A DNA stretch of 64,000 nt from Oscillospiraceae bacterium. GTDB taxonomy: Bacteria; Bacillota_I; Bacilli_A; RF39; UBA660. The position numbers and the translations under genes were made by a program. This document shows positions 8,258 through 63,900 of this stretch, piece by piece (the first letter of the stretch is position 1; each line of letters starts with the position of its first letter). The notes under the pieces were generated by a model. That model was not told the DNA's origin. It saw nothing but the letters and a program-made list of their open reading frames with translations, and did not search any database. The stretch is from positions 610 to 64,609 of the forward strand of contig CAVGWA010000005.1 of assembly GCA_963632935.1 (NCBI GenBank), written 5' to 3'.

Positions 8258-8283
8258 AAGAAAAACACATCGACGATGTGTTT
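8258..8283 (-). terminator. Rho-independent terminator after the LRR pilin-like gene
   Basis: Inverted repeat aaacacatcg (8263-8272) / cgatgtgttt (8274-8283), followed on the minus strand by ttttcttgtt. Confidence 0.6.
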
Positions 8284-8749
8284 AACTCCAATGTATAGTT
8301 GCATCTTCAGCCCCCCATGGAAAGCCAGACAAAGACCCAGTATCAATAGTTTTAACATAAAATATTATTCCACTATTTCCAACAAATGCATCAGATGAAA
8401 TTTCCAAAATATTAGACTTTATAGTAATATTAACTAAAGATTTATCTTTAAAAGCCGAAGATCCAATAGAATCAACAACTAACCCATTAATAGTTTCTGG
8501 AATAAATACTGTTTTATCACAATCACCACTATATCCAGTAATTGTCGCATTTCCATTAGAATTTTTCTGATAATAAAAACAAGATTCTTCCGTAGTCAAC
8601 TTTTGAACATCATCCAAAGCACCCTCCTTTATTTTATCATTACTAAGCTTATGATTAGATAAAATAGAAACAGTTCCCATAACCAAAACTAAAAAAAGTG
8701 ATAAAATACCATAAAGTAATGCGGAAGTTACAAAACCATTTTCTTTCAT
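8282..8749 (-). CDS. Pilin-like N-terminus fused to a BspA-type leucine-rich-repeat module (minor-pilin-like; no Glu at +5)
   Basis: N-terminus MKENG|FVTSALLYGILSLFLVLVMG. The C-terminal half (FIPETINGLVVDSIGSSAFKDKSLVNITIKSNILEISSDAFVGN) looks like LRR_5/BspA-type repeats. Confidence 0.6.
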   Translation of the reverse strand: MKENGFVTSALLYGILSLFLVLVMGTVSILSNHKLSNDKIKEGALDDVQKLTTEESCFYYQKNSNGNATITGYSGDCDKTVFIPETINGLVVDSIGSSAFKDKSLVNITIKSNILEISSDAFVGNSGIIFYVKTIDTGSLSGFPWGAEDATIHWS

Positions 8750-8773
8750 ATAATCCCCTTACCTTTTACTAAA

Positions 8774-8802
8774 ATTATACCCCATTTATTTATCCAAGGC
8801 AA
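8774..8802 (-). promoter_or_regulatory. Sigma-A-type promoter for the LRR pilin-like gene
   Basis: On the minus strand: TTGCCT (8797-8802), a 17-nt spacer, then TATAAT (8774-8779). It lies about 25 nt upstream of the start at 8749. Confidence 0.5.
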
Positions 8803-8851
8803 GTACTAACCAACCAGCAAAATAAATCATATAATAATAAAGGTGATATAA

Positions 8852-9025
8852 ATGAAAAACATCTTCTTTGGTAAAGGAAAATGGACATTACTATGCATAA
8901 TATGTATGATAATACTACTTTATCAAATACTAATTACAATATTTATTGTAACAAGATTTAATGTATTTTTAATATTCATATTTCTAATAATTTTATTTAT
9001 TTGTATCTTTAGACTCCTTTGGTAA
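8852..9025 (+). CDS. Possible small hydrophobic protein (57 aa, two predicted TM helices)
   Basis: AGGTGA SD 6 nt before the ATG. Translation is MKNIFFGKGKWTLLCIICMIILLYQILITIFIVTRFNVFLIFIFLIILFICIFRLLW. It overlaps the 3' end of the convergent 8993-9907 gene by 33 nt, and AT-rich sequence yields such ORFs by chance. Confidence 0.2.
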   Translation: MKNIFFGKGKWTLLCIICMIILLYQILITIFIVTRFNVFLIFIFLIILFICIFRLLW

Positions 9026-12089: not shown

Positions 12090-12533
12090 TTATATATTAT
12101 TAATTTTTTTATCAATTTGTTCAAAAAGAATCGAAAAATTTTCATCATCCTTATAAAATGTTGACAAAGCCCTTTTTGCCTTAATTAAATCAGATTTATT
12201 ACAAGAAGAAATCCAATCATCAAATTTACCTTTTGTATAATTTAAATACATATTCAAAAAGGAAGCATCTTCACTTTCATGTACATATGTAGTTAAAGTT
12301 AAAGTTAATCTTTGAATAATTAAATTATCTTCAAAAAAACTTAAAATTTCTAAAATTTCATAAATTTTTTCATATTCCAAATCATTAATATAATTATCTA
12401 AAGTATTATTCTTAAAAGCTTCCTTCATTTCATCTAAAATTACTTTATTAGAATTTAATAAACCTTTTCTTTTTTTAAATACCTCATCATCACATTCTTT
12501 TAAAATAAAATCATCAAACACTCTATCTACCAC
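12090..12533 (-). CDS. Hypothetical protein, tandem paralogue A
   Basis: 147-aa ORF, apparently cytoplasmic and helical. It shares blocks with the adjacent ORF (NTLDNYINDLEYEKIYEILEILSFFE vs NAIDSYISKCSYDELCEVWDIMAFMK; FDDWISS...LIKAKRALSTF vs FMNWLES...LRMLKKALFTF). Confidence 0.5.
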   Translation of the reverse strand: MVDRVFDDFILKECDDEVFKKRKGLLNSNKVILDEMKEAFKNNTLDNYINDLEYEKIYEILEILSFFEDNLIIQRLTLTLTTYVHESEDASFLNMYLNYTKGKFDDWISSCNKSDLIKAKRALSTFYKDDENFSILFEQIDKKINNI

Positions 12534-13005
12534 CCTTTAGTTTTTCATAATAGATATTTATCTTTTCTTCCATCAAAATATATTTATCATCCTTATTATC
12601 ATTTCCAAAATTAAATGTAAATAATGCTTTTTTTAACATCCTAAGTTCCTGCATGCTTAAGCTCTCAAGCCAATTCATAAAATTATTTTCATCAATATTT
12701 TTAATCATATCAATAAATATATCACCTTCATATTCATGAATCTTAGAAACAACTTTACCAATAACTTCATAATAATCATATTTCATAAAAGCCATAATAT
12801 CCCAAACTTCACATAGTTCATCATAGCTACATTTAGAAATATAACTATCAATCGCATTCTCATTATAAGCCTTTATTAAATCTTTCAAAATTTTATAACA
12901 ATGAACTCTTTTTTTATTTTCATGGTAAACTTTTTTAACATCATCTATATAATAAATACCATTATCATCCTTTACGCCTACCATATTAATTTTAAAATTT
13001 TCCAT
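12523..13005 (-). CDS. Hypothetical protein, tandem paralogue B
   Basis: The start is set at ATG 13005 (MENFKINMVG) with a GAGGGA SD; the ORF track starts at 13062. It overlaps paralogue A by 11 nt. Confidence 0.5.
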   Translation of the reverse strand: MENFKINMVGVKDDNGIYYIDDVKKVYHENKKRVHCYKILKDLIKAYNENAIDSYISKCSYDELCEVWDIMAFMKYDYYEVIGKVVSKIHEYEGDIFIDMIKNIDENNFMNWLESLSMQELRMLKKALFTFNFGNDNKDDKYILMEEKINIYYEKLKGGR

Positions 13006-13147
13006 AATATAATCCCTCAAAGATATAATAATATTTACAAGGAAAAAAGTCAAATCTGACATAGCACTTAAAAAATAATATCTTTATTATGATTTTTTTA
13101 GCAGTTGTCATACAAATTAAAAAGAAAGTCAAAGATAGTACTACTCA

Positions 13148-20238: not shown

Positions 20239-20402
20239 ATTTGTTCCTTTCTAAATTTATCTTTCATTTAATAACATACGATTTTTTTGTCTTATTTCCT
20301 GCAAGAACGATAAAAAAAAATTAAGAATATGAAAAAAATATAAAAAGGTAAAATATTTAAATTTTTAAACATATTAAAAAAGACTAGAATAAAGACTAGC
20401 CT

Positions 20403-21806
20403 TTAATTATTTACTACATATGGATTAGAAATAGTTCCTTCACCTGATAAAGTAATATCAGATGATAAGAAGAAGACTGGAGATATAGAACTTACACTAG
20501 AAGGTAAACTCCAACCTGTTGACCAACTAATAGAATACAAATGGCCTGCATAATCAGTATAAGTTGGTGTAATTGTATAACTAGATAAATATGCTAACCA
20601 GTTTGTAGCCATACATTCATAACCTTCCTCATAAACAGAACTTTTACGTAAAGTACCACATAATTCTGTATTACTATTAGCCTTTACATAATCGCTTGCA
20701 TTTATTAATCCTATTTTGCCCTTCCACTGATAAGTGCTTTCTTGACTCAATGTATCAGATAAACTAGTATCTGCATAACTCATTGCACTTGTAATACCTA
20801 CATTAAACAAATGCGTTACTATTTTGCTTTGTATATTTGTGGGTAATGTATTTAACCATGTTTTATTTAAATATGTATTTATATATGCTTCTTTTTCCGG
20901 AAGATTATACAAATTTCCTCCTACAGTCCTTGGCATAGACGTTACATTATTTCCTGATGAATCTAACATTGTTGTCCTACTTCCCCATACATTACAGCCT
21001 GAATATTGAGCTTCTACTGAAGGAGAAGAAGGATTCCCATTCGAACCATAATAACAATAATCCGTAAATGAACTTGTATATCTTGTTCCAGTAACAGAAT
21101 TTGCATCCGTTACTCCTGATATACTTGTTGAATATCCTGGGTCAAATGGCATACTTCCAATGTTATCATTTTTAATTACTTTAAGTGTTCCATCTGATTC
21201 TATAGATATTATTCTATACATATCAGAACCTAATTTAATATAATTACCTGGAGTTACTCCTTTATACACATATCTATTTGATTCGGTACTATCAACATAT
21301 AACCCATCTCCCGATGTTACTACACCCTTAATCAAATCAGATGTTTCAGTAAAAATACCACATTCAGCTTCAGATACCTTAGTAAAAGTTAAAGTTTTAT
21401 CAGTATCTTTTTTTATGGCACATATTCCAACTGATTTATTATAAACAGCCATTGAAATTTTACCATCTTTATCAATTTTTATTGTTCCACTATCTGGATT
21501 TGTTCCAGAATATTTAAGTAAACTTTCAGTAGAAGTTTCTTCCTTTTTTGTTTGGGCGTTTGTATATGTATTTGTTTGATTTTGATTTTTAAATGTAATT
21601 TGTAATGGTAATTTTACTGTTTCTTCTAGTGATTGAGAACTATAATAGTTTTGAGAAGCTTTTAATAATAATGTTGTGCTATCTTCAAAACTCTTTGTTT
21701 TAGCAGTACTAATAACATTAAGAACAATTGGTGTTGTTATGGTTGCTATTATTCCAATGATTATAATGACAGCTAATAATTCAACTAATGTAAAACCTTT
21801 TTTCAT
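20403..21806 (-). CDS. Type IV pilin-like protein with a large (about 430 aa) C-terminal domain
   Basis: The start is set at ATG 21806 (MKKG|FTLVELLAVIIIIGIIATI), a prepilin class III signal with Glu at +5. This ATG overlaps the TAA of the upstream pilin gene (TAATG). Confidence 0.8.
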   Translation of the reverse strand: MKKGFTLVELLAVIIIIGIIATITTPIVLNVISTAKTKSFEDSTTLLLKASQNYYSSQSLEETVKLPLQITFKNQNQTNTYTNAQTKKEETSTESLLKYSGTNPDSGTIKIDKDGKISMAVYNKSVGICAIKKDTDKTLTFTKVSEAECGIFTETSDLIKGVVTSGDGLYVDSTESNRYVYKGVTPGNYIKLGSDMYRIISIESDGTLKVIKNDNIGSMPFDPGYSTSISGVTDANSVTGTRYTSSFTDYCYYGSNGNPSSPSVEAQYSGCNVWGSRTTMLDSSGNNVTSMPRTVGGNLYNLPEKEAYINTYLNKTWLNTLPTNIQSKIVTHLFNVGITSAMSYADTSLSDTLSQESTYQWKGKIGLINASDYVKANSNTELCGTLRKSSVYEEGYECMATNWLAYLSSYTITPTYTDYAGHLYSISWSTGWSLPSSVSSISPVFFLSSDITLSGEGTISNPYVVNN

Positions 21807-22210
21807 TAAGCACATTTTTCCTTATTATTTTTATTAATGTATTCATAAAAATATTTTTTATAATTGCTTGTTACCTTAACAACATCCTTTAACATTTCAC
21901 AATTTTTTTTGCTATTTATTGTATTGCTACTTATATAACCATTATCAACTAAAACTTGTCCTGTTATCTCACCACTACTACCATATTCTTTTATAACAGT
22001 ATCTGATTTTAATGCTTTAGGAAATTCATCAACATGATTATTTACATAATTTCTAGCAGCTGATATCATTAATTGTTTTGATGCTTCATCTGTTTCATTT
22101 TGCGAATTATTAAGCATGCTTAATACAGCAGGAAATGCTAATAAAGCTATAATAGCAAGTATAACAATCGTTCCTAATAGTTCAATTAAAGTAAATCCTT
22201 TATTTTTCAT
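21806..22210 (-). CDS. Type IV pilin-like protein (134 aa)
   Basis: MKNKG|FTLIELLGTIVILAIIALLAFP, a canonical prepilin cleavage/methylation motif followed by a pilin-sized globular part. Confidence 0.85.
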   Translation of the reverse strand: MKNKGFTLIELLGTIVILAIIALLAFPAVLSMLNNSQNETDEASKQLMISAARNYVNNHVDEFPKALKSDTVIKEYGSSGEITGQVLVDNGYISSNTINSKKNCEMLKDVVKVTSNYKKYFYEYINKNNKEKCA

Positions 22211-22254
22211 ATAAACACCTACTGTGATAATTATAGCATTTATGTTTTAAGATG

Positions 22255-23019
22255 TCAATTTACTTGATGAAAATCTAATCTTAATTTATCAGCAATAGTT
22301 ACCATAAATTCTGAATTAGTAGGTTTTGCTTTATCAATATCTACACTATATCCAAATATTTCTTCCATAAAATCTAAATTTCCTCTATTCCAGCTTACTT
22401 CTATTGCATGTCTTATTGCTCTTTCGACTCTTGATACTGTTGTATCAAATTTATCAGCTAATAATGGATATAATTCTTTAGTAATTCCTCCTATTATACC
22501 TGGATTTTCAAAAATAACATTTACAGCTTCCCTTATATATTGATATCCTTTTATATGTGAAGGTATTCCTAATTCATGTAGCATTTTAGTAATAGAAATT
22601 TGTAGATTACTTGTATAAAAATCAATGTTTTGATCACTATTTTCTTTTTCCATAATATCATATATTCTTTTTTCCAAAATAGATAAATCAAATGGTTTTA
22701 AAATATAATAACTTACTCCAAATTCTGATACTTCACGAATTACTTCAGCTGCATTATAACTTGTAGCTACTATAACTTTATTTTTTAAATTTCTTTTTTT
22801 CATTTCATTTAAAACATAAATTCCATCTTTGTTTGGCATAATTAAATCTAATATTATTAAGTCTATTTTATTTTGATATTTTTCTATTTGCTTTACTCCA
22901 TCTTCCCCATCATTTGCTTGATAAGCTATATTTATATTTTCATTTTCTTTAAAATATTCTTTTACCATTTCTATTAAATTTAAATTATCGTCTATCATTA
23001 AAATATTTATTTTTTTCAT
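22255..23019 (-). CDS. spo0A: Sporulation master regulator Spo0A
   Basis: Receiver domain (ILMIDDN..., DLIILDLIMPNKDG) plus a Spo0A-specific C-terminus (HIKGYQYIREAV...ITKELYPLLADKFDTTVSRVERAIRHAIEVSWNRGN). Confidence 0.95.
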   Translation of the reverse strand: MKKINILMIDDNLNLIEMVKEYFKENENINIAYQANDGEDGVKQIEKYQNKIDLIILDLIMPNKDGIYVLNEMKKRNLKNKVIVATSYNAAEVIREVSEFGVSYYILKPFDLSILEKRIYDIMEKENSDQNIDFYTSNLQISITKMLHELGIPSHIKGYQYIREAVNVIFENPGIIGGITKELYPLLADKFDTTVSRVERAIRHAIEVSWNRGNLDFMEEIFGYSVDIDKAKPTNSEFMVTIADKLRLDFHQVN

Positions 23020-23128: not shown

Positions 23129-23160
23129 TAAAAAAAGGAGTTATTTTTGAACAACTTCCT
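23129..23160 (-). terminator. Possible terminator at the end of tpiA
   Basis: On the minus strand: AGGAAGTT (23160-23153) pairs with AACTCCT (23142-23136) with one bulge and a 10-nt loop, followed by tttttttatt. Confidence 0.4.
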
Positions 23161-23803
23161 CAATTTTTAATAAACTACTAATTTTAACACCAGAAATTCC
23201 TAATAAAAAACCAGAAATATTCTTTATTTCATTTAATTTTTCTATATTACTTTCATCTATGCTACCACCATATAAAATTTTAAAATTTGGATATTTATTT
23301 TTTATATAATCTATTATTTTTTCTATTTCTTCAGCAGTAGGAGTTATGCCTGTTCCAATAGCCCACACGGGTTCATAAGCAATTATTACATTTCCTTTTA
23401 TATTTTTTAAAACATTTAATTGTTTATCTAAATGGTTTTTTATATTTTCATTTTTTTCTTCACCAACGCACAATACGGGAATCAAATTATTTTCTAAAGC
23501 TATTTTTATTTTTTCTTCTATTTCATCACTTATATTTTTTCTAACTTCACTATGACCGATTAAAGCATAATGACATCCCATTTCTTGTGCGGAAAGTGCG
23601 GATATTTCTCCAGTGTATGCCCCTGATGAATGTGAAGAGATATTTTGAATACCACAGGTAAAACCATTTTCTATAAATGTCCCAATATGAATAGATGAAG
23701 GGAAAAAAATTATATTTTTTTCTTTTAATGCTTTTATATAATTTTGAATATCTTCTTTTTTGTTCAAATACATCTTTAAATTAACAAATATCATTTTTTC
23801 CAT
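23141..23803 (-). CDS. tpiA: Triose-phosphate isomerase (short form, 220 aa)
   Basis: FVNLKMY (Asn/Lys), IGHSEVR (His) and AYEPVWAIGTG (Glu) catalytic motifs, plus YGGSI. The start overlaps the upstream glycosyltransferase gene by 13 nt. Confidence 0.9.
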   Translation of the reverse strand: MEKMIFVNLKMYLNKKEDIQNYIKALKEKNIIFFPSSIHIGTFIENGFTCGIQNISSHSSGAYTGEISALSAQEMGCHYALIGHSEVRKNISDEIEEKIKIALENNLIPVLCVGEEKNENIKNHLDKQLNVLKNIKGNVIIAYEPVWAIGTGITPTAEEIEKIIDYIKNKYPNFKILYGGSIDESNIEKLNEIKNISGFLLGISGVKISSLLKIEEVVQK

Positions 23804-25017
23804 TTAATCACCTTTTTGAAAAAATTTTCTATTTTTTCTTTATAACTTAATTTTCTATTTTTTAAAGCTAAATTGTAAACATCTAATACTCTTTCTGCGA
23901 AGTATTTTGCAGAATGCATCTCAGCACTATTTCTAGCCCCTTTTTTTAAAGATAAAAATAATTTTTTATCATTCATAATTTTTATTATTTTATTAATGCT
24001 ATCTTCTTCATTTTCAAATAAATAACCATTTAAATCATCAATTACAGTACCTGCGAAGCTTTCATCATTTATACATAATGAAGGAAGTGATGATGCCATA
24101 GCTTCAATTATTGTTAAACCTTGTGTTTCACTTTGAGAGGCGGATATAAATATATCAGCTAGATTATAATATGAAGGTACATCATCCCAAGGAACTTTCC
24201 CTGTAAAAATAATATTGTTCATACATTTACTAGATAATTTTTCATATCTTTCTTTATCAGGACCATCTCCAACAATTAATAATTTAAAGTTTGGTTTTTG
24301 TTTTATAATTTTTTCAGTTATATTTATTAAAAATGGAATATTTTTTTCTTCAGCTATTCTACCTACAAATATGGCTACAAAATCTTTATTTTTTATATTG
24401 TATTTTTTTTGTAATATGTTTGTTTTTTTTATATCAACATTTTCTTCATAAAAACGTTCCAATTCTATTCCAGTTGGAATTATATGAATATTTCTTGAAA
24501 CATTATATTTTTTCTTAAACAAATCATAAGCTTTTTTAGTTGGAACAATAAGTTCTGTTATAGTTCTATCACAATAGAATTTGGTTAAATATTCAAGTAG
24601 TTTTTTACTTGATCTATCAAAATGACCTTTAGTTATATAATATACATAATCTTCATACATTGTATGATATGTATGAACTATTGGTATATTATATTGCTTT
24701 GCGAATAATCTAGCAAATGTACCAATAGCGAATTCTGTTTGAGAATGTATAACATCTAAATTCCAACTTCTTATTTTATTTATTGCTTTAATTGGATAAA
24801 TACTAGTTAATCTTGAATCATATATACCCGTTGGTATTCCTGGGATTTTTAAAACTTTTTCTTTTTCATCATATTCATAATGAAAATTTTCTAAATTAGC
24901 AGTTACAACATAAACTTCATGTCCTTTTTTTTCTAAGGCCTGTTTTAACATAAGTTCACTTGTTACAAGACCACTAATATATGGTGTATATGTTTCAGTA
25001 AAAATTCCAATTCTCAT
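23791..25017 (-). CDS. GT4-family glycosyltransferase (diacylglycerol glycosyltransferase-like; membrane glycolipid synthesis)
   Basis: MRIGIFTETYTPYISGLV N-terminus and a C-terminal GT1/GT4 motif (SQSETQGLTIIEAMASSLP). It resembles 1,2-diacylglycerol 3-glucosyltransferases. Confidence 0.8.
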   Translation of the reverse strand: MRIGIFTETYTPYISGLVTSELMLKQALEKKGHEVYVVTANLENFHYEYDEKEKVLKIPGIPTGIYDSRLTSIYPIKAINKIRSWNLDVIHSQTEFAIGTFARLFAKQYNIPIVHTYHTMYEDYVYYITKGHFDRSSKKLLEYLTKFYCDRTITELIVPTKKAYDLFKKKYNVSRNIHIIPTGIELERFYEENVDIKKTNILQKKYNIKNKDFVAIFVGRIAEEKNIPFLINITEKIIKQKPNFKLLIVGDGPDKERYEKLSSKCMNNIIFTGKVPWDDVPSYYNLADIFISASQSETQGLTIIEAMASSLPSLCINDESFAGTVIDDLNGYLFENEEDSINKIIKIMNDKKLFLSLKKGARNSAEMHSAKYFAERVLDVYNLALKNRKLSYKEKIENFFKKVIKWKK

Positions 25018-26018
25018 TATTTTGCCTCCTTATTAAAGGAAAGTGTTAAACCACCTATTAATATTCCAAAGTAGTACGTTACTATTCTCCAAGCAATCAT
25101 AACACTTGATAAAACTGGTTCGGTTATAAAGTTTTTAAAAAATGAAAGAAAACTATATTCTAATCCACCAGTACCTCCAGGAATTGGTGTCATTGAACCT
25201 ATCAGCATAACATATGCGGATGTAATTACTACTTTTATTGGATTTAAATATATTCCAAGACCCATTAATAATGCGAATGGAATTAAATATTGACCTATTA
25301 AAGCTATAAAGTTTAATAAAATTATTTTAAATACATTTACTTTATCTTTAAAAAGTACTATCGCACTTTCATGAAAATTACTAATAAATTCTTCTGAACT
25401 TTTTAATTTTTCTTCTTTATTTTTAATTATTTTCAATTTATATAAAATATTAATGGAACCATCAATTAATTTTTTATTCCATTTTCGACTAAATGCGACT
25501 AAAAATAGAAAAATAACTACTAATGTATTTATTGTAAAACCTAATACTACTAATTTTTTTAAAAGTGCACTAGCTGGAAATAAACGGAGCTGATAATTTG
25601 TAATAATAGCAATTAATCCAAGTAAAACAAGAGCAATTTGATATGCTATAAAATCTTGAATTATAACATTACTAGCCTGACCTAAAGATAGACCATCTTT
25701 TTTTAATTTATATATCTGCCATGGCTGACCACCAGATGAAAATGGAGTTATTGCATGAAAAAATTGTGTAGTTACCATAAGTAAAATACCTTGCTTAATT
25801 GTATATTTATCATATACTTTTTTTGTGCAGTAATATAAAACTAATCCTTTAAAAAACCAATATAATAAAATTAAAGAAAAAGCTATTAATAACCATTTAA
25901 TATCAAATGAAAATAAATATTTAACCTTTTCTTGAAAATTATCTTTTAAAGCTAAATAAAGTACCAATACGGTAAGAACTAATATTATTATAAAATTTCT
26001 TTTATTATTTTTCATCAA
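25017..26018 (-). CDS. Flippase-like / lysyl-phosphatidylglycerol-synthase TM-region family membrane protein (UPF0104)
   Basis: 333 aa with about 8 TM helices and a PIPGGTGGLE motif typical of this family. There is a 1-nt overlap with the downstream GT4 gene and a 14-nt overlap with pgk. Confidence 0.7.
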   Translation of the reverse strand: MMKNNKRNFIIILVLTVLVLYLALKDNFQEKVKYLFSFDIKWLLIAFSLILLYWFFKGLVLYYCTKKVYDKYTIKQGILLMVTTQFFHAITPFSSGGQPWQIYKLKKDGLSLGQASNVIIQDFIAYQIALVLLGLIAIITNYQLRLFPASALLKKLVVLGFTINTLVVIFLFLVAFSRKWNKKLIDGSINILYKLKIIKNKEEKLKSSEEFISNFHESAIVLFKDKVNVFKIILLNFIALIGQYLIPFALLMGLGIYLNPIKVVITSAYVMLIGSMTPIPGGTGGLEYSFLSFFKNFITEPVLSSVMIAWRIVTYYFGILIGGLTLSFNKEAK

Positions 26019-27189
26019 TTATATCCAAAGCTTTTAAAGCTTTCCCTTCTAAATATTCTAAACTAGCTCCCCCTCCAGTTGAAATATGACTTATTTTATC
26101 TTCTAAGTTAAATTTATTAACACTTCTTACTGAATCTCCACCACCTACTACAGTGTAAGCTTTAGTTTCTGATATGATTTGTAATATTTTTTTAGTACCG
26201 TTTTCAAAAGGTTTTAATTCAAAATATCCTAATGGACCGTTTAAAAATATTGTTTTTGAATCGTCTATATACTGTTTAAAAACTTCTACTGTTTTTGGAC
26301 CAATGTCTAATCCAATTTCATCTTCTTTTATTTCATTTATAAATCTTTCATTAGTATTTGCTTTATCAGATATTTCATTAGCTGTTATGATATCAATTGG
26401 TAAAATAATTTTATCTTCATATTTATCAAGTAAATCTTTACAATATGATATTTTATCTTTTTCTAAAAGAGATTGTCCAATATTAAACCCTGCAGCTTTT
26501 AAAAATGTAAAAGACATTCCACCAGCAATTAAAATATAATCGGCTTTATTTATTAGATTACTAATAACTCCAATTTTATCACTTACTTTAGAACCGCCTA
26601 AAATAATTATATATGGTTTTTTAGGTTTATCTATTAGTTTACTTAATTTTTTTATTTCATTTTCAACTAAAAAGCCAATTCCACTAGGAATATTCTTTGA
26701 AATTCCATAGTTTGATGCATGAGTTCTATGAATAGTTCCGAAAGCATCATTTATAAATATATCACCTAAACTTGCCCAATATTTACTTAATTTTTCATCA
26801 CAATTACTTTCTTTTTTATTAGGTAAATCTTCAAACCTTGTGTTTTCTATTAAAATGACATCTTTATTTTTCATTTTATTTATAGCTTTTTCTATTTGTT
26901 CTCCACGAGTGATATCTATAAATGTAACTTTTTTTCTTAATAGTTTACTAAGTCTTTCTGAAACTGGTTTTAGGGTATATTTTTCTTTATCATCTTCTGT
27001 TTTAATTCTTCCTAAATGTGAAAGTAAAATTACTTTAGCTCCCATTTTTCTTGCATATCTAATTGTTTTTAAACTAGCTTTTAATCTTTTTTCATCTTTT
27101 ATAATTCCATTTTCTATTGGAACATTGAAGTCACATCTAATTATAACTTTTTTATCTAATAAGTCATAATCTTTTATTGTTTTTTTCAT
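26005..27189 (-). CDS. pgk: Phosphoglycerate kinase
   Basis: RCDFNVP, LLSHLGR, FEDLPNKKE, GGSKVSDKI and STGGGASLE motifs. Confidence 0.96.
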   Translation of the reverse strand: MKKTIKDYDLLDKKVIIRCDFNVPIENGIIKDEKRLKASLKTIRYARKMGAKVILLSHLGRIKTEDDKEKYTLKPVSERLSKLLRKKVTFIDITRGEQIEKAINKMKNKDVILIENTRFEDLPNKKESNCDEKLSKYWASLGDIFINDAFGTIHRTHASNYGISKNIPSGIGFLVENEIKKLSKLIDKPKKPYIIILGGSKVSDKIGVISNLINKADYILIAGGMSFTFLKAAGFNIGQSLLEKDKISYCKDLLDKYEDKIILPIDIITANEISDKANTNERFINEIKEDEIGLDIGPKTVEVFKQYIDDSKTIFLNGPLGYFELKPFENGTKKILQIISETKAYTVVGGGDSVRSVNKFNLEDKISHISTGGGASLEYLEGKALKALDIIDEK

Positions 27190-27193
27190 ATGC

Positions 27194-27559
27194 CTAACCT
27201 CCGTATGTATATTCTAATGTACCATTATTGTTTTTTACTTTTACATAGCTAGCTTCTTCAATAACTTTTGATTTTGTTTTAGGGTTTTGTAAAGTTCCTT
27301 GAACATAACCTGCAGCAACTAAATCTTCCGATTGTATTGTTTCTTCTGAACCATTTGTTGTTTTTAAAATATAATATTCATCTGAATGCACTTCCACATA
27401 TACTTCAGCCGCTTTTTCAATGGTATGTTTATATTCTGCATAATTATTTTCCTGAAATTTTTTATTTGTATCTATAATTGATGGAACAGATACTAAGATT
27501 ATAATTCCAAGTATAGTTAAAATTGCGAGTAATTCAACTAATGTAAAACCTTTATTCAT
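27194..27559 (-). CDS. Type IV pilin-like protein (121 aa), first gene of the pgk operon
   Basis: MNKG|FTLVELLAILTILGIIILVSVPS. Its stop codon lies 4 nt before the pgk start. A terminator lies upstream (27617-27641) and a candidate promoter lies between them. Confidence 0.85.
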   Translation of the reverse strand: MNKGFTLVELLAILTILGIIILVSVPSIIDTNKKFQENNYAEYKHTIEKAAEVYVEVHSDEYYILKTTNGSEETIQSEDLVAAGYVQGTLQNPKTKSKVIEEASYVKVKNNNGTLEYTYGG

Positions 27560-27576
27560 ATTATCACCCTATATTC

Positions 27577-27605
27577 ATTCTATAACATTTTTATAATAAT
27601 AACAA
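27577..27605 (-). promoter_or_regulatory. Candidate sigma-A-type promoter for the pilin-pgk operon
   Basis: On the minus strand: TTGTTA (27600-27605), a 17-nt spacer, then TAGAAT (27577-27582). It lies about 18 nt upstream of the pilin start. Confidence 0.35.
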
Positions 27606-27616
27606 GTTGTTTACAG

Positions 27617-27641
27617 ATAAAAACGTATCAGCTTGATACGT
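27617..27641 (-). terminator. Rho-independent terminator after the PASTA-domain gene
   Basis: Stem acgtatca (27623-27630) / tgatacgt (27634-27641) with a 3-nt loop, followed on the minus strand by ttttat. The stop codon lies in the stem. Confidence 0.55.
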
Positions 27642-28446: not shown

Positions 28447-28480
28447 CTACATATATTATACATTTTTTTAAAATAAAAAC

Positions 28481-49420: not shown

Positions 49421-49539
49421 TGTCCTTATCACCTACTTTAATTAAATTATAATTGATATATCTTTTAAAGTCAATTAATTTTATATGCGGTTTCATATGA
49501 ACTTTTGTATAAATTTTAGTGGCTTGAAGAAATTATAAA

Positions 49540-49568
49540 CATAAAAGAGATGATTTTTGTCATCTCTT
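49540..49568 (-). terminator. Rho-independent terminator after the giant pilin gene
   Basis: Stem aagagatga (49545-49553) / tcatctctt (49560-49568) with a 6-nt loop, followed on the minus strand by ttttat. Confidence 0.65.
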
Positions 49569-49570: not shown

Positions 49571-52500
49571 TTAAGATACTCTTAAAACAAATTGTGCCCA
49601 AGCTTCGTTACCTGCATTATCCCATATTTTACGTTGCTCATCAAAGTCAATCGGACGATAAAAATCAGATTCTATATGATATGCACAGGTGGTTGTCCAT
49701 ATACAATTTGAAAATGAACCATTCGTTGGTTTCCAATATATTAAATCCGAACCTGCTTTAACTCCTGATAAACTATCAGCTTTATATACGCTTGCATCAT
49801 AAGCAATCCAGCCATTAAACGTTGCATTGGCATAACAGCTTTGTCTTCCGTCGCAATTCGAATATGTTATGGTTAACTTGCTACCTCCGACTACATTATA
49901 GAAATAAAGTGTTGGTGAAGTCACATCCATCATTAATTTTGCTGATGAAGAATTTGAAACATTTCCAGCTTTATCTACTGCTCTATAGTAAATTGTTTGA
50001 TTCTTTTCTGGTGACCAGTTATTTGTGGCACCAGTATCAGTCCAGGTACCATTATTACCTAAACGATATTGATATTTAGAAATTCCAGAGCCTTCATCTT
50101 TTGAAGATACAGTTGTAATTATACTACTATTGTTCCACTGTGAATTAGATGCTCTAACACCTAATTTATTGATTTTATATTTCAATCCAGAAACATTACC
50201 AATGTCAAATCTAACATTGTTATAAGTTCCATTTGGAATTGTAATTGTAATTTTAGTTTGTCCTGCTTTTAATGTTGCTTTTTTGGAATTAGCTTCACTA
50301 TGACCATTTCCACTTGTTGCGTAGAATATTTGGATATTTATGTCTTTAGTTAGTGCTGATGCTAATTCAATGTAGGCACCATCTATATTTTTTATCCAGT
50401 TTCCAACTTCAATGTCTATTATTGGATCATTAGTTGAGGTTTCCCATGTTCCTGTTGTTCCAGCATCACTTTTGTATCCATTTAAGGATTTTGTTTTAGT
50501 TCCCCATATGTTATATATTGTACTTATTGTTGGTGTAGTTGGCGCTGTTTTATCTAAAGCATTTGCATATAAAGTTTTATTACCAGTTAATGTATATTTA
50601 CTACCGGCTGAGGTACCTGAAGTAGCTCCACTAGTTGTATTCCATCCAACTGATGTATATCCAGTTTTTGCTGTAATACTAGGTAAAGTTACTGTGCAAC
50701 TAGTTGCTTGAGCTGTTCCATTATAAGTTGCTGCACGTGTGCAGCTTCCAGTAGTTGCTCCAATTGCAGATACATTAGCTCCTTTACTATAAGTTATAGT
50801 ATGAGTTTTCGCATTTGCTTTAGTAATTGCATAATATGTTGCATTTGAACTTACTGCTTTAGCTGTATTTTGATTCCATCCACTTGTTGTAGCTGATGAA
50901 GAAGTATTATATCCAACTACTGTTGGTGTATTACTACTTCCTACTATTGTTGGACTAGTTACACTACATGTTGTTGCTTGCGAAGCATTATTATAAACTG
51001 CAGCTATTGTACAAGAACGTGTTACAGTAGTATCACTTACAGCTGTCCCACTACTATTTGTTTGCGTTGATGCATTATTTTTATTAAATGTAACTGTTAT
51101 TGTTTTTGCTTCTTTTCTATATATTGCATACAAAGTTACATTACTAGTTCCCATCGTTAAACTAGATAATTTACTAGTCGCATCCTTATTTGTATTCCAT
51201 CCAACAAATGTATAACCTGATTTGGTTGCTGTTGGAGTTAAATCTATAGCTGATGATTCATTAACTATCGCTGACGTTTTAGTAGAAGATGTTCCTCCAT
51301 TTGTTTTATAATTGTATGTTACTGTTCTTCTAATAGCAATATTATATGAAGTTGATATGGTATTTGTTCCATCAGTTACTTTCGCTATTAAAGTGGTATT
51401 GCTTGTAAATTCTATGGTTGGATTAGATGTTACTGTAACCCAGTTAGTTCCACCATCTTTACTATAAGAACATGTTAATCCATTAGAGCATCCTGATGGA
51501 TATGTAACAGTTACTTTTGATTTGCCTATTTCAGTCTCTTCTGAGAAAGTAGGTTTATTTATTGTTACTGTTGAGACTGTTTTACTTGCAGTATTTTGTT
51601 TAGAAGCTGTAGAAGTTACTCTTACTTTTATATTATAATTTGTTCCATGTGTTAATTTATCAAATGTATAAGTATTACCGGTTCCGGTAACCCATGTAGA
51701 ACCACCATCTTTAGAATATTCATATTTTGAAATACCTGATAAAGCATATGCATTAGCTACTACGGTTATGCTTTTGGAAGTTGATGTTGTTGATATACTT
51801 AATGTAGGTGCGGTTGCATCCCTTTTTACAGTTAAATTACATGTTCCAGTATTTCCAGCTTTATCTTTAACAAAACCATAGTATGTTTTTGATGATACAT
51901 CTTGATTTAATGTTTTTTCTGTTACATTATTGTATTCTACATTATTTGTCTCGGTTAATCCTTTAGATGCTACTCCACTTTCTTTGTCTGTTGCTGTTAG
52001 GGTTATCTTTACATCTGATGTATACCAATTATTATTTCCCAAAGTTCCTGATGAAGTTATTTTACAAGTTGGTTTTACTGTATCTGTTATCTTAAATGTT
52101 TTACCATCAGAGATATTACCCGCTTTATCTTTTGTCCATACATAATAAGTACCTAATGAATAACTATTAGTATATACCTTTTCTTCATTTGCCTTAGATG
52201 TAAATGATGTCCAACTATTACTTGTTTCACTCGGTTTTGTACTAGAAGTACTGATATATATACCATTTATTCCTGATATAGTATCTTTTACAGTAATATT
52301 AACTTTTTGTTTTTCATTAGACCAAGAGTCTAATTTAATATTTGTAATTAAAGGATTAACACTATCTACATTTATTACTTTATATTTATTTGTTATTGTG
52401 TTGTTTCCTTTTAGTTGTGCAGTTATTGTAGATATTTTAGTGAACGTTAGTTTTGTTTTTCCTCCAGAGTTTGCTCCATCTATGATCCAATTTCCTTCAT

Positions 52501-52996
52501 CTATTTTATATTTTGATTTATAATCACCTTCAACTTCTGGGTACAATATTGTAACGGTTCTTGATTTTACCCAACTGTTCCCATATGGATTTACAATAAA
52601 ATCAATGGTAGGCATTGCGGCTTCTTCTTTACATGAAGTGGTATCTTTTATTTCATATTCTGATGTACCTTGTGAATATATTGTTACTAATACAGTTTTA
52701 TCAGTTATATCTTTATTAGTTTCAACATCCTTTACAGGCGAAACTAAATATCCATTATCGACAAGTATTTGTATAGGAATGCAGTACTTACCACTTTTCC
52801 CTTTGGGATATAAATTACTATTTTCATCAATATATTGCTGTGTAGCTGTCCCTATAACACTATCACTTGCTATTTTTGATGGTGCTTTTGTTTTTGCAAT
52901 ATTATTTATAATTGTTGGCACAATTAAAATAAGTAACAGAGATATTATTACTATTACTCCTAATAATTCTGCTAATGTAAATCCTTTATTTTTCAT
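49571..52996 (-). CDS. Giant type IV pilin-like adhesin (about 1,141 aa): prepilin N-terminus, Ig-like modules and Listeria-Bacteroides-type repeats
   Basis: The start is set at ATG 52996 (GGGTGA SD): MKNKG|FTLAELLGVIVIISLLLILIVP. There are four D(K/N)AGN-terminated modules (KDKAGNIS, KDKAGNTG, VDKAGNVS, WDNAGNEA) and three GY(T)xVGWNT/GYNT repeat modules. Confidence 0.8.
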   Translation of the reverse strand: MKNKGFTLAELLGVIVIISLLLILIVPTIINNIAKTKAPSKIASDSVIGTATQQYIDENSNLYPKGKSGKYCIPIQILVDNGYLVSPVKDVETNKDITDKTVLVTIYSQGTSEYEIKDTTSCKEEAAMPTIDFIVNPYGNSWVKSRTVTILYPEVEGDYKSKYKIDEGNWIIDGANSGGKTKLTFTKISTITAQLKGNNTITNKYKVINVDSVNPLITNIKLDSWSNEKQKVNITVKDTISGINGIYISTSSTKPSETSNSWTSFTSKANEEKVYTNSYSLGTYYVWTKDKAGNISDGKTFKITDTVKPTCKITSSGTLGNNNWYTSDVKITLTATDKESGVASKGLTETNNVEYNNVTEKTLNQDVSSKTYYGFVKDKAGNTGTCNLTVKRDATAPTLSISTTSTSKSITVVANAYALSGISKYEYSKDGGSTWVTGTGNTYTFDKLTHGTNYNIKVRVTSTASKQNTASKTVSTVTINKPTFSEETEIGKSKVTVTYPSGCSNGLTCSYSKDGGTNWVTVTSNPTIEFTSNTTLIAKVTDGTNTISTSYNIAIRRTVTYNYKTNGGTSSTKTSAIVNESSAIDLTPTATKSGYTFVGWNTNKDATSKLSSLTMGTSNVTLYAIYRKEAKTITVTFNKNNASTQTNSSGTAVSDTTVTRSCTIAAVYNNASQATTCSVTSPTIVGSSNTPTVVGYNTSSSATTSGWNQNTAKAVSSNATYYAITKANAKTHTITYSKGANVSAIGATTGSCTRAATYNGTAQATSCTVTLPSITAKTGYTSVGWNTTSGATSGTSAGSKYTLTGNKTLYANALDKTAPTTPTISTIYNIWGTKTKSLNGYKSDAGTTGTWETSTNDPIIDIEVGNWIKNIDGAYIELASALTKDINIQIFYATSGNGHSEANSKKATLKAGQTKITITIPNGTYNNVRFDIGNVSGLKYKINKLGVRASNSQWNNSSIITTVSSKDEGSGISKYQYRLGNNGTWTDTGATNNWSPEKNQTIYYRAVDKAGNVSNSSSAKLMMDVTSPTLYFYNVVGGSKLTITYSNCDGRQSCYANATFNGWIAYDASVYKADSLSGVKAGSDLIYWKPTNGSFSNCIWTTTCAYHIESDFYRPIDFDEQRKIWDNAGNEAWAQFVLRVS

Positions 52997-55988: not shown

Positions 55989-56648
55989 TTAAGCAAGTTT
56001 TGATATATATAAAAATGCATTAGTATCTGGGGCAGTTGTTAGTTCTGATGCCTTTCTTGTCTTAACAACTAGGTTTATAATATCTCCTTTTTTAGCTCTA
56101 GTAACTGCCATACTGTGGAAATCGGTATCATTATTTACTATAACATCTTTACTAACTTCCGAACCTTCAACAAATTCACCGTTTAACCATATTTCAGTGA
56201 ATAAAGCTGTTTGAACAGAAGAAGAAGCCGAAAAAAAGTATTCTATTTTATATATGCCATCTTCATTAATTGTAAAAGCATTTCCTGTATTAATTATTCC
56301 TATTACTTCACCAGTTCTATTTAATTCAACTTCTTTAAATGTATCATCTTCTAAGTTCATTATATTTCCAGCATCACTAAATTTATATCCAAATACACTA
56401 CGTGGCAAAGGTCCAGTTGGTCCTGTTGGGCCAATACTTCCTTTTGGAATTTTAAAATCTAAAATATGAGTTTTATCTATTAATGTATCTATAACTACAG
56501 CTTCTGTGTCTGGTTCTGTTGTTTCCGTTTTTCTTACTTTAATACTTTCAGATTCTCCTACTGGTCCAGTTGGACCAATATTACCATATTTTTCTTTACA
56601 TTTTTTTCCTTCTATTAAAATATCATCAATTTTTTTTGAATATTTCAT
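55989..56648 (-). CDS. BclA-like spore-surface protein: two mini collagen-like (GXY)4 runs plus a C-terminal beta-rich (C1q/TNF-like?) domain
   Basis: GNIGPTGPVGES (residues 22-33; DNA 56550-56585) and GSIGPTGPTGPL (residues 70-81; DNA 56406-56441). GPT triplets are the hallmark of Bacillus/Clostridium exosporium collagen-like proteins. The C-terminal roughly 135 aa is beta-strand-rich. Confidence 0.55.
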   Translation of the reverse strand: MKYSKKIDDILIEGKKCKEKYGNIGPTGPVGESESIKVRKTETTEPDTEAVVIDTLIDKTHILDFKIPKGSIGPTGPTGPLPRSVFGYKFSDAGNIMNLEDDTFKEVELNRTGEVIGIINTGNAFTINEDGIYKIEYFFSASSSVQTALFTEIWLNGEFVEGSEVSKDVIVNNDTDFHSMAVTRAKKGDIINLVVKTRKASELTTAPDTNAFLYISKLA

Positions 56649-61220: not shown

Positions 61221-61600
61221 AACTGTTTTCCTTTTCTTTTTTCTTTTATTTCACTATGTAATTGACCCATTTCTTTATTAATTATGTCATATTCTGTAGA
61301 ATTTCCAAACAAATAAGTCTTTAATCTAGAATAATTTCTTCTTGTTGTACCTATTTGATTATAGTCTAAAAATTTCAGATCAATAGTATGGAGTTGTCTC
61401 AGTTTAATTTTTCCCTTTAAAAATAATTCTACTCTTAAATCAATTTCGTTTTTTAATTTTATATTTTCATCTGAAATACTTTCGGTATTAATTTTTTCTG
61501 AATAATTGTTTGCATCCGAATTTTCATTAATTGTATCAGAATTATCAGGTATTGTGTTTGATAAATCTGGTATAACATTTTTTATTTCACTATTTTTCAT
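61217..61600 (-). CDS. Hypothetical protein inserted between lepA and hemW
   Basis: The start is set at ATG 61600, 1 nt after the lepA stop (the ORF track starts at 61618, inside lepA). The N-terminal half is Asn/Asp/Ser-rich and low-complexity (IPDLSNTIPDNSDTINENSDA), and the C-terminal half is basic. There is a 4-nt overlap with hemW. Confidence 0.45.
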   Translation of the reverse strand: MKNSEIKNVIPDLSNTIPDNSDTINENSDANNYSEKINTESISDENIKLKNEIDLRVELFLKGKIKLRQLHTIDLKFLDYNQIGTTRRNYSRLKTYLFGNSTEYDIINKEMGQLHSEIKEKRKGKQL

Positions 61601-61601
61601 A

Positions 61602-63404
61602 TTATTTACCTTCTTCATCTAATTTTAAAACAGCTAAAAATGCAGAACTTGGTAGTTCAACATTACCTACCATTTTCATTCTTTTTTTACCTTCTTTTTG
61701 CTTTTCTAATAATTTTCTTTTCCTTGTAATATCGCCACCATAACATTTAGCTAAAACATTTTTTCTTAAAGCTTTTATGTCAGCTCTAGCTATTACTTTA
61801 GAACCTATTACTGATTGAATAGGTACTTCAAATAATTGTCTTGGAATTATTTCTTTTAATTTTTCTACTATTGCTTTTCCTCTTGTATATGCAAAATTTT
61901 TATGAACAATTATACTTAATGCATCAATTACCTCACCATTTAATAATATATCCATTTTAACTAAATCACTAGGTTTATAACCTATTAATTCATAGTCAAA
62001 TGAGGCATATCCTTTTGTTGAACTTTTTAATTTGTCAAAAAAATTATAAACTATTTCTGATAAAGGTATTTCATAGTGAATATTAACTCTTGTTTCACTA
62101 ATATATTCCATGTTTATATATATTCCCCTTTTATTTTGACATAATTCCATTATTGGTCCTATATAATTTGTTGGAACATATATATTTGTTTTTACATATG
62201 GTTCTTCTACTTGTTTTATTTTTTGTCTATCAGGCATTTTAGCTGGACTATCAATGTAAATTACTTCATTATCTGTTTTTGTTATTTTATAAATTACAGA
62301 AGGACTTGTCGCAATATGATCTAAATTGAATTCTCTTTCTAGCCTTTCTTGTATTATTTCCATGTGAAGTAAACCTAGAAAACCACATCTAAAACCAAAA
62401 CCTAAAGCTTTTGATGTTTCTGGTTCAAATTCTAAAGCAGAATCATTTAATTTTAATTTTTCTAAAGCTTCTCTTAATTCTGGATATTTATTTGTTTCTA
62501 TTGGATATAATCCACAAAATACCATTGGTTTCATTGGTTTATAACCCGGGAGGCTTTCTTCAGCTGGGTTATTTTCTAAAGTAATAGTATCTCCTACTTT
62601 AATATCACTGATACTTTTTATACTAGCACATAAGTAACCAACTTCACCACAGGATAAAGATGTTTTTTTCTCTAAATGTGGATTACTTACACCAAGTTCC
62701 GTTACTTCATAGACTGCATTTACTTTCATAAATTTTATTTTGTCTTTTAATTTAATACTACCACTTTTAATTCTAACTAAAACCACAACACCTTTATATG
62801 AATCAAAATGACTATCAAATACTAGTGCTTTTAATTTGTCATTTGTATTACTTTCTGGTGATGGTATTCTTTCAATTACAGCTTCTACTAATTCTTTTAT
62901 TCCTTGTCCTGTTTTAGCACTTGTTAAAATTATTTCATCTTCTTTAAATCCTAATGTTTCTAACTCTTTTTTTACTTTTGGAATATCTGCATTCGGAAGA
63001 TCTATTTTATTTATTACTGGTATTATTTTTAAGTCATTTTCTATAGCTAAATATACATTGGCAAGAGTTTGAGCTTCTATTCCTTGTGCGGCATCTACTA
63101 CCAATATTGCACCCTCACAAGCTGCTAGACTTCTAGATACTTCATATGAAAAATCTACATGACCTGGAGTATCAATTAAATGCATTATATAATCTTCATT
63201 TTTATAATTATAATGAAGCTGGACAGCATTTAATTTTATCGTTATTCCTCTTTCTCTTTCAATGTCCATATTATCTAATAATTGGTCTTTTTTTTCTCTT
63301 TCACTAATAGCACCTGTTAGTTCTAATATTCTATCGGCAATTGTGCTTTTTCCATGATCTATATGGGCTATTATTGAAAAGTTTCTGATGTTTTTTTGAT
63401 TCAT
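61602..63404 (-). CDS. lepA: Translation elongation factor 4 (LepA)
   Basis: The start is set at ATG 63404 ([21 protein letters not shown]). [13 protein letters not shown] and the LepA-specific C-terminal domain are present. Confidence 0.97.
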
Positions 63405-63450
63405 GTATATCACCGATTTAATTATATCAAAAAAAAAAGTAATACGCTAC

Positions 63451-63900
63451 TTACCATTTGAATTTACAATCTAAAGTTTTTCCTGCTTTTTGGTTGCATG
63501 CATACAAACCAAATTTTAAATCTTTAACTTCTATTTCACCATCTGTATTTATTACTACTTTACCACTAGATGCTTGTTTTCCTTCAATTTTTATTTTAAC
63601 TGTATTAGGTATTGTATATTCTCTTCCATCTTCATAAAGTGTATATTTTCCATGTTTATATTCAACGGTAAAAGGCAGAGCAACATCATCTCTTAAATTA
63701 ATAGATGCATACATGTCTTTTACAGTAGAAATGGTACCCTCTGTATTTAATTTTGCTGAATTATACATAGTAGTTGATACTATTTTAGTAAATGAAGGTG
63801 TTAATATTATTAAGATTATAAATAACATTAATATGACTAGTCCATATTCTATCATTTGTATTCTTTTACTATCTTCATTGACTTCTTTCATCGCACCCAT
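63451..63900 (-). CDS. Hypothetical secreted/anchored protein with a Flp/pilin-like N-terminal segment (IEYGLVI)
   Basis: AAGGGG SD. The N-terminus ...SKRIQMIEYGLVILMLFIILIILTP contains an EY plus hydrophobic helix as in Flp/TadE-type pilins, but has no Gly at -1. The C-terminal roughly 110 aa is beta-rich. Confidence 0.45.
   Translation of the reverse strand: MGAMKEVNEDSKRIQMIEYGLVILMLFIILIILTPSFTKIVSTTMYNSAKLNTEGTISTVKDMYASINLRDDVALPFTVEYKHGKYTLYEDGREYTIPNTVKIKIEGKQASSGKVVINTDGEIEVKDLKFGLYACNQKAGKTLDCKFKW

Follow-up and report, generated by a model that had tools for sequence, protein, structure and literature searches.

Does a set of type IV pilin-like genes dispersed among core genes, with no assembly machinery beside it, encode the subunits of a real filament? 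This question is raised by a 64-kb stretch of DNA (hereafter the window) that is part of a 66-kb source contig, CAVGWA010000005.1, from an Oscillospiraceae bacterium. Six pilin-type open reading frames (ORF1 to ORF6), all on the minus strand, are spread over five loci among the core genes of the window. A sequence-only reading had proposed that they carry varied C-terminal modules displayed by one filament machinery encoded elsewhere. The ORF coordinates that it gave were confirmed, as were the neighbors that it named (obg, spo0A, an ABC transporter, gap/pgk, pyk, and lepA), the latter by Pfam annotation. Our analysis points to genuine type IV filament subunits, most likely of a type IVa-like pilus whose genes are scattered through the core genome, and we assign this explanation a probability of roughly 0.7.

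The scan with the N_methyl hidden Markov model (HMM; PF07963) that had been suggested along with this proposal was performed on the window, and four of the six ORFs exceeded the gathering score, a density of about 60 N_methyl genes per Mb for the window alone. ORF2 (20403-21806), ORF3 (21806-22210), ORF4 (27194-27559), and ORF5 (49571-52996) begin with MKKG/FTLVELL, MKNKG/FTLIELL, MNKG/FTLVELL, and MKNKG/FTLAELL, respectively (the slash marks the predicted cleavage site), and scored 22.8-31.7 bits against a gathering cutoff of 21.2 bits, with an E value of 1 × 10−7 for ORF3. ORF2, ORF3, and ORF4 also scored above the cutoff of TIGR02532, and ORF5 fell just under it. The leaders of ORF1 to ORF5 are 4-5 residues long and end in K/N-G before Phe, as in class III signal peptides; the combination of Glu5, a hydrophobic stretch, and an above-cutoff HMM score was found in ORF2 to ORF5 and in neither ORF1 nor ORF6. 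The earlier list of prepilin N-termini stands for these four, which are canonical and HMM-supported; ORF1 lacks Glu5 and ORF6 lacks Gly at position −1. When K-G-F-T-L-x-E-L-L was back-translated into a DNA pattern, the window contained four exact matches, located at ORF2 to ORF5, compared with 0 in 100 shuffles, and a six-frame motif scan of the window found no further copies of the prepilin motif. Independent gene calls agree with the six ORFs.

The pilin modules sort into two types, apart from ORF1, which resembles neither: those of ORF3, ORF4, and ORF5 share homology with one another across about 115 residues, and those of ORF2 and ORF6 make up the second type. AlphaFold2 (AF2) models of ORF2 and ORF4 contain a long N-terminal helix (residues 7-56 and 7-57, respectively) that is followed by beta strands. 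PDB searches returned only sequence matches, which fell on the alpha1 helix of pilins such as PilE1; the best match of ORF3, a small pilin of 134 aa, was Streptococcus sanguinis PilE1 (8pfb, E = 7.5 × 10−6).

Relatives place these genes in a wider context. One conserved arrangement concerns ORF4, a small canonical pilin of 121 aa that ends 4 nt before the start codon of pgk, so that co-transcription of the two genes would be almost unavoidable. Its AF2 model (predicted local distance difference test [pLDDT] score of 84.7) shows a minimal pilin, in which a helix spans residues 7-57 and the head is a small alpha/beta fold. The family counts 53 members (clusters), in which M1, F5, T6, L7, E9, L10, and L11 are invariant while mean identity is 50%; such an invariant leader and N-terminal part of alpha1 at this level of divergence argues for selection for processing and assembly. 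Wherever a relative offered context, an ORF4-type pilin was located upstream of pgk at a distance of 4-16 nt, and the adjacency was found in the window, L002, L007/L008, L009/L010, L011/L012, L039, and L051/L067. The conserved order is gap, a variable segment, the pilin, pgk, LPG_synthase_TM, GT4, tpi, and spo0A, and this arrangement holds down to 41% identity in the pilin, 68% in PGK, and 77% in Spo0A. ORF4 is a candidate for the abundant (major) subunit.

In the window, this interrupted glycolytic operon occupies 23141-29524 on the minus strand and consists of gap, a PASTA/zinc-ribbon protein gene, ORF4, pgk, a gene for an LPG_synthase_TM membrane protein, a GT4 glycosyltransferase gene, and tpi. 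The tpi product is unusually short at 220 aa and diverges much faster (41-55% identity) than PGK. Pilin genes adjoin other glycolytic genes in more distant relatives: L013 (8400-10363) has the order eno-pilin-pilin with an 11-nt overlap with eno, and L015 (10001-11953) has a pilin 15 nt upstream of gpmI. The linkage of pilins to glycolysis thus recurs with pgk, eno, and gpmI.

ORF3 and ORF2 form a second unit, which is predicted to be bicistronic because the stop codon of ORF3 overlaps the start of ORF2. Directly 5' of ORF3, and overlapping the end of spo0A, is a sigma-70-type promoter match (TTGACA-17-TATAAT with TG; 22230-22258, minus strand); it is a pattern match, and no other site in the 11.3 kb scanned matches at 12/12 positions. 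A terminator-like hairpin with a T run, likewise a pattern match, lies right behind the ORF2 stop codon (20379-20404, minus strand). ORF2 starts at the MKKG codon in the gene callers, and a longer 470-aa version is not on record. The 467-aa protein, for which we found more than 460 homologues, is bimodular: a class III signal peptide, the alpha1 helix, and a small beta head occupy residues 1 to about 150, and a second module extends from about residue 160 to 467. The AF2 model (pLDDT 73.5) agrees with this division, with the helix at 7-56, strands at 95-143, and the module at 163-467 (pLDDT mostly 85-95). What had been described as an unrecognized domain of about 430 aa therefore resolves into a pilin head of about 100 aa and a DUF6273-related module of about 300 aa.

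The C-terminal half of this module resembles Pfam DUF6273, weakly in ORF2 itself and above the cutoff in the relative at L009. DUF6273 has been described as a C-type-lectin-like fold present in gut-phage receptor-binding proteins that are diversified by diversity-generating retroelements (DGRs; PMC10743442). The ORF2 model matched phage DUF6273 proteins in BFVD (E = 4 × 10−4 to 2 × 10−3), while a Foldseek search of the PDB returned nothing significant for it and a PHROGs scan yielded only N-terminal pilin-like matches and one weak match to the DUF6273 region. We also compared ORF2 with a strain about 95% identical (window 20403-20650 versus L002 11150-11401) and counted 64 nucleotide differences in the gene, of which 37 lie within its last 250 nt. 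These clustered differences correspond to the C-terminal end of the DUF6273-like module, and their pattern is not adenine-specific. We considered ORF2 as a DGR target and rejected it, as neither a template repeat of the ORF2 3' end nor a reverse transcriptase-like ORF was found anywhere in the window.

The module occurs behind several kinds of N-terminus, and the slot after spo0A is variable among relatives. The module of about 300 aa is found behind prepilin N-termini, behind a ComGD-like minor-pilin module (protein P0002), behind leucine-rich repeat (LRR) regions, and behind an N-terminus composed of a K-rich stretch, a transmembrane segment, and GYAAF/L. This slot, which holds ORF3 and ORF2 in the window, holds a pair of 125- and 157-aa pilins in L011 and, in L007, a pilin of 660 aa that bears both Listeria-Bacteroides repeats and ricin lectins; it is empty in L009. 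In L003, an ORF2 homologue lies between pcrA and ligA. These varied core-gene contexts, together with those of L013 and L015, show that pilin dispersal is a trait of the lineage and not a peculiarity of the window.

The non-pilin DUF6273 surface proteins share a conserved N-terminus of a K/R-rich stretch, a transmembrane segment, and then [VI]GYAA[FL]S. Their genes were observed in L003 (8300-9658), L009 (941-2371 and 8382-9896), L062 (9515-10969), and L072 (9515-10939), the last directly 3' of pilD. By eye these N-termini resemble a SipW/TasA-type signal, an assignment that we rejected given no support from TIGR04088 or other NCBIfam models.

ORF5 is the largest of the six proteins (1141 aa) and combines a pilin module with Ig/FN3-like domains, Listeria-Bacteroides repeats, and OmpL47-type beta-barrel domains. 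Besides N_methyl, it matched Flg_new (E = 4.6 × 10−16), DUF7743, and NF047446 (E = 5 × 10−13), and its pilin module matched that of ORF3 with an E value of 7 × 10−18. The gene has a ribosome-binding site (RBS) ahead of its ATG at 52996 and forms a separate unit upstream of pyk; pattern matches place a terminator-like hairpin behind it (49545-49568, minus strand) and an 11/12 match to a promoter for pyk downstream of that hairpin (49446-49474). Both ORF2 (DUF6273-like) and ORF5 (DUF7743, Flg_new, and OmpL47-type barrels) thus have the composition of modular pilins, which carry a pilin module and at least one domain that is not specific to type IV pili, and ORF1 can be counted with them for its pilin-like N-terminus and LRR_5 unit.

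ORF1 and ORF6 are the divergent pair. ORF1 (8282-8749; 155 aa), upstream of obg, begins with MKENG/FVTSALLYGILS, has Ala and not Glu at position +5, and carries one BspA-type LRR unit, whose LRR_5 match (E = 8 × 10−5) is under the gathering score. Neither N_methyl nor any other pilin model in Pfam or NCBIfam matched it. An exhaustive HMMER search with ORF1 returned 15,368 LRR matches and eight small full-length homologues. The family so defined consists of proteins of 150-200 aa with a practically invariant N-terminus, KG/F[VI]TSALLYGILS, followed by the BspA LRR_5 unit, and one homologue, P0197, attains the LRR_5 cutoff. Pattern matches to an RBS and to a −10-like sequence lie upstream of ORF1. 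Glu5-less pilins that are missed by standard tools are known as tip or capping subunits, among them GspK/PilK and S. sanguinis PilA (PMC9934059), and by analogy ORF1 is a candidate tip/minor or capping pilin.

ORF6 (63451-63900; 149 aa), upstream of lepA and with an RBS ahead of its ATG at 63900, had been called looser than the others. It is a divergent, stand-alone paralog of the ORF2-type pilin head: BLASTP aligned its residues 34-144 with residues 26-133 of the pilin head of P0033 at 32% identity (E = 1 × 10−10) and also matched it to ORF2 (E = 1 × 10−5), while scans with Pfam, even at E ≤ 0.1, and with NCBIfam gave no match. The earlier inclusion of ORF6, like that of ORF1, can be defended with qualifications. 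With the conserved Thr-Pro at the end of the hydrophobic helix as the anchor of the alignment to the ORF2-family head, Glu18 of ORF6 corresponds to position +5 and Arg13 to position −1, and the N-terminus [KNA]R-[IM]xx[IL]EY, with Glu5-Tyr6 and no Gly at −1, is kept in 5/5 ORF6 homologue clusters. As Arg replaces Gly at −1 throughout the family, ORF6 is probably a pilin-head paralog that a Gly-specific prepilin peptidase would not cleave. We also considered ORF6 as an Flp/TadE (type IVc) pilin, for which the xxxxEY spacing is right, and rejected this on account of the Arg at −1 and the lack of HMM support. A UPF0236 transposase-like gene lies upstream of ORF6, just past position 64000 of the window (L017 539-1285), so ORF6 may sit at a rearrangement point.

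Is there machinery to assemble these subunits? The statement that none is encoded in the 64 kb was borne out. Pfam scans of the 49 other proteins of the window found no T2SSE, T2SSF, Peptidase_A24, or PilN/O, and the sole PilM_2 match in the window is weak and corresponds to a bona fide FtsA beside ftsZ. Similarly, phmmer searches with Escherichia coli HofB, HofC, GspE, GspF, GspO, GspL, and GspM gave no match in the window at E ≤ 10 among ORFs of at least 50 aa. The same queries served as a positive control in L006, a locus of a candidate phyla radiation (CPR) bacterium, where they detected PilB, PilT, and PilC; this locus held the one match, N-terminal only, of a contig scan with ORF2-specific patterns.

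Loci returned by a metagenome scan with an ORF2-family alignment (79 loci, 712 kb in all, GC content of 24-35%) were screened for machinery, as was L099, the contig that encodes P0002. Near relatives do encode an extension ATPase, a platform protein, and a prepilin peptidase, and these genes are scattered too. In L099 (GC 27.7%), a 441-aa T2SSE ATPase (GspE, E = 2 × 10−110) is divergent from P0002, with a second canonical minor pilin following; P0002 joins a minor pilin to a DUF6273 module, and this module, 64% identical to its ORF2 counterpart, is the closest non-orthologous relative of ORF2. L083 likewise has a T2SSE ATPase (Pfam E = 1.5 × 10−124), 75% identical to that of L099, that is divergent from two minor pilins. 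L072 contains, in order, dnaG-sigA-trmK, PilC (T2SSF), a bifunctional A24 peptidase, and a DUF6273 protein. Because they share an assembly, coverage, and a paralogous DUF6273 gene, L072 and L062 are probably from the same organism, and L062 retains the murG-divIB-ftsA-ftsZ order of the window, with an FtsZ 78% identical. The ATPase and platform proteins of relatives fit GspE/PilB/GspF models better than ComGA/ComGB models (481 versus 266 bits and 284 versus 145 bits, respectively). PilM/N/O and PilT were seen in none of the relative loci screened.

Relatives carry Tad-like sets as well as type IVa-like ones, which qualifies the earlier proposal of a single filament machinery. L086 belongs to a rumen-type contig of 564 kb. 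Its positions 3956-8939 encode two TadE-like pseudopilins, a CpaE/ParA-like ATPase, CpaF, and TadB/TadC-like proteins and lie about 1 kb upstream of a type IVa-style pilin with N_methyl and DUF6273; neither an Flp pilin nor TadV was identified in this set. Tad-like sets were also present in L026, L033, and L093, and the GC content of the four loci is 25-27%. By analogy with the relatives, the machinery for the pilins of the window would most likely be encoded elsewhere in the same genome. The proposal of modules displayed by distant machinery is partly supported, by the modular-pilin architecture of ORF2 and ORF5 and by the PilB/GspE-type ATPase, PilC, and PilD at other loci of relatives.

Several observations weigh against a pilus. 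Machinery genes are absent from the 64-kb window and from about 220 kb of closely syntenic relative loci, and the machinery that was found belongs to loci of relatives and not to those of the organism of the window. ORF1 and ORF6 match no pilin HMM, and Foldseek searches with the AF2 models of ORF2 and ORF4 retrieved no solved pilin structure significantly. A pilus would further suppose that subunits of 1141 aa and 467 aa polymerize. One rival explanation is that the pilin-type N-terminus is mainly an export and anchor signal dependent on prepilin peptidase, with ORF2 and ORF5 as surface adhesins held by their helices and no long filament, comparable to the archaeal sugar-binding proteins that carry a class III signal peptide (the bindosome) or to a short pseudopilus. 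In its favor, the DUF6273 module recurs behind K-rich/transmembrane/GYAAF/L anchors or in LRR proteins and would thus be a cargo for surface display in general, the size of ORF5 is very large if it is to polymerize, and PilM/N/O and PilT were encountered in no locus. However, Glu5 and the whole assembly interface of the N-terminal part of alpha1 are strictly conserved, which a plain anchor would not need; the small pilins ORF3 and ORF4 carry no cargo and are nonetheless highly conserved; the extension ATPase adjoins minor pilins in relatives; and modular pilins of 50 kDa are known to enter pili (PMC8179133). We consider the anchor explanation unlikely.

A ComG-type competence pilus, in which the ORFs would be pseudopilins for DNA uptake, is less probable still. 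It draws on sub-threshold matches of ORF3, ORF4, and ORF5 to ComGC and ComGE, on weak matches of ORF2 and P0002 to ComGD, and on a lineage label of Bacilli that occurs in only two named homologues ("MAG: Bacilli bacterium"). The equivalog scores are nevertheless far under their cutoffs (at best 39.5 bits versus 75, for ORF4 against ComGC), and the matches span only the shared N-terminal helix. The genes lie outside any comG operon, comGA and comGB are absent from the window, the ATPase and platform proteins of relatives prefer the GspE/PilB/GspF models, and adhesin-type modules are no feature of Com pili. Finally, the N-termini could be fortuitous, whether as ordinary signal anchors in an AT-rich genome or as miscalled ORFs, and the failure of ORF1 and ORF6 to match a pilin model would fit this. 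The motif statistics and the HMM scores above curated cutoffs refute chance similarity for ORF2 to ORF5, and the conserved families with invariant motifs and the agreement of independent gene calls also count against it, leaving this the least likely explanation by far.

Type IV filament subunits therefore remain our preferred explanation. From the motifs, architectures, homologies, and synteny observed here, together with the machinery genes of relatives, we infer how processing, polymerization, subunit roles, and machinery in this genome might be arranged. Each prepilin would insert in the membrane via its hydrophobic N-terminal helix, and a PilD-type bifunctional peptidase, encoded elsewhere, would cut the leader of 4-5 residues after Gly and methylate Phe1. 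A PilB/GspE-type ATPase and a PilC platform would then polymerize the subunits through their alpha1 helices. The shaft would be built of the small pilins ORF4 and/or ORF3, the former co-transcribed with pgk and the latter expressed from behind a consensus promoter. ORF2 (DUF6273/C-type-lectin-like) and ORF5 (Ig-like, Listeria-Bacteroides, and beta-barrel) would be minor pilins of the modular kind, displaying their binding modules probably at the tip. ORF1, Glu5-less and with an LRR unit, would be a candidate capping subunit, and ORF6 is pilin-like but would probably not be cleaved by PilD.

Pilins of this general kind are known. Modular pilins comprise more than 1,200 proteins in 264 architectures, and those of S. 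sanguinis include PilB with a vWA module and PilC with a lectin module (PMC8179133, Raynaud et al. 2021). The S. sanguinis pilins resemble those described here in their monoderm host, their class III signal peptide, and the attachment of a bulky binding module to a short pilin module (ORF2 and ORF5), as well as in including a small Glu5-less pilin missed by tools (PilA; compare ORF1) and small major-type pilins (ORF3 and ORF4). They differ in that the S. sanguinis genes lie in one pil locus with the machinery, whereas five loci among core genes are involved here; the modules here are DUF6273/C-type-lectin-like domains, Listeria-Bacteroides repeats, OmpL47-type barrels, and LRR units; the leaders here have only 4-5 residues; and the proteins described here are known from their genes alone. 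The sequence-only reading had held that pilins are normally clustered with their machinery, which is true of the Firmicutes studied so far, but the type IVa pilus genes of diderms are classically scattered (PMC6916266). The type IVa pili of diderms such as Neisseria and Pseudomonas share with the present set the short leaders, the G/FTLxE motif, and the spread of pilin and machinery genes over many loci (PMC6916266); unlike them, the host here is a spore-forming Firmicute, and no secretin, PilY1, or HIJK-type set was seen.

Two further comparisons concern the modules and the Tad-like sets. The C-terminal half of the ORF2 module resembles the phage DUF6273 "tentaclins" and DGR targets (PMC10743442), as the BFVD match of the model indicates, though the similarity is modest (E of about 1 × 10−3), the ORF2 module sits on a pilin and not on a virion anchor, and no DGR parts are present in the window. 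The uncultured gut order TANB77 has a conserved, compact Tad-type pilus cluster (PMC11680825). Its pilin-like proteins were recently linked to host immune effects. It too is a clade of uncultured low-GC gut Firmicutes whose pilin-like proteins are specific to the lineage, and L086 carries a comparable Tad-like set; in contrast to the single compact Tad cluster of TANB77, the pilins of the window are type IVa-like and dispersed, and no Tad gene is present in the window. Only ORF6 has an Flp/TadE-like "IEY" appearance, without HMM support.

To characterize the surroundings of these genes, we annotated the window with Pfam. It has a GC content of 24-33%, and nearly all of its coding is on the minus strand. 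The core genes include dnaE, a two-component system, obg, and genes for a CotS-like kinase and a SpoVID/LysM protein, with sodA; ftsZ-ftsA-divIB-murG, an FtsX/ABC pair, spo0A, tpi, pgk, gap, clpP, and dxs; gerA/gerC/gerB, a GH31 glycosidase gene, pyk, and ftsW; and a gene for a BclA-like collagen protein, tmk, thyA, hemW, and lepA. Scans for tRNA and Rfam families found neither in the window. Judged by its gene content, the window is an ordinary core-genome stretch of an uncultured, spore-forming low-GC Firmicute of the gut. Exact sequence matches were confined to short Logan contigs from SRR13434688, and a strain about 95-98% identical to the window is present in ENA assembly ERZ15610575.

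Some other features of the window and of relatives were also observed. A collagen-like GPT-repeat protein with a BclA_C exosporium domain is encoded at 55989-56648 (minus strand), with a counterpart in L003 (675-1439); taken with the SpoVID-like and CotS-like genes, spo0A, and gerA/B/C, this protein indicates a spore former that bears an exosporium. Two adjoining, paralogous-looking proteins of 147 and 179 aa without a family match are encoded at 12090-13062 (minus strand), and a stand-alone ClpX-like AAA+ protein (AAA_2 and ClpB_D2-small) is encoded at 3160-4566 (plus strand), divergent from dnaE. In L007 (2490-3179) and L011 (153-3095), sortases lie beside MucBP-repeat surface proteins, so that the lineage also uses sortase anchoring besides the pilin-type and GYAAF-type N-terminal anchors.

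ORF2 to ORF5 belong to a class already known, that of type IV and modular pilins, and their layout is unusually dispersed for a Firmicute. The points of some originality are the conserved linkage of a pilin to pgk, the fact that machinery and pilin genes alike are scattered in a Firmicute, and a pilin with a DUF6273 module that is reused on a different N-terminal anchor. To our knowledge, type IV pili of monoderms have been studied in very few species, and their genes are clustered in all of them. This lineage would add a Firmicute whose set of pilus genes is fully dispersed, a pilin embedded in a glycolytic operon, and uncharted modular pilins, one of them with a DUF6273 module of the phage receptor-binding type. 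The understanding of how type IV filaments work is unchanged by these findings. Their relevance to gut ecology is that an uncultured, host-associated spore former may use them as adhesins.

A bolder reading, which we offer only tentatively and think rather doubtful as a whole, is that in this uncultured gut Firmicute clade an entire type IV pilus system has been dismantled and its genes built into core operons. The shaft pilin would be fixed immediately upstream of pgk across genus- to family-level divergence, with paralogs beside eno and gpmI in more distant relatives, pilC-pilD would sit behind sigA, and pilB would stand alone with minor pilins. The slots beside spo0A, ftsZ, pyk, and pcrA would be hot spots at which modules are swapped between the pilin and the unrelated GYAAF anchors, the modules being LRR units, ricin lectins, and DUF6273/C-type-lectin-like domains of the sort found in phage receptor-binding proteins. 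If this were true, pilus expression would be tied to central metabolism, and strains would differ in their repertoire of adhesins.

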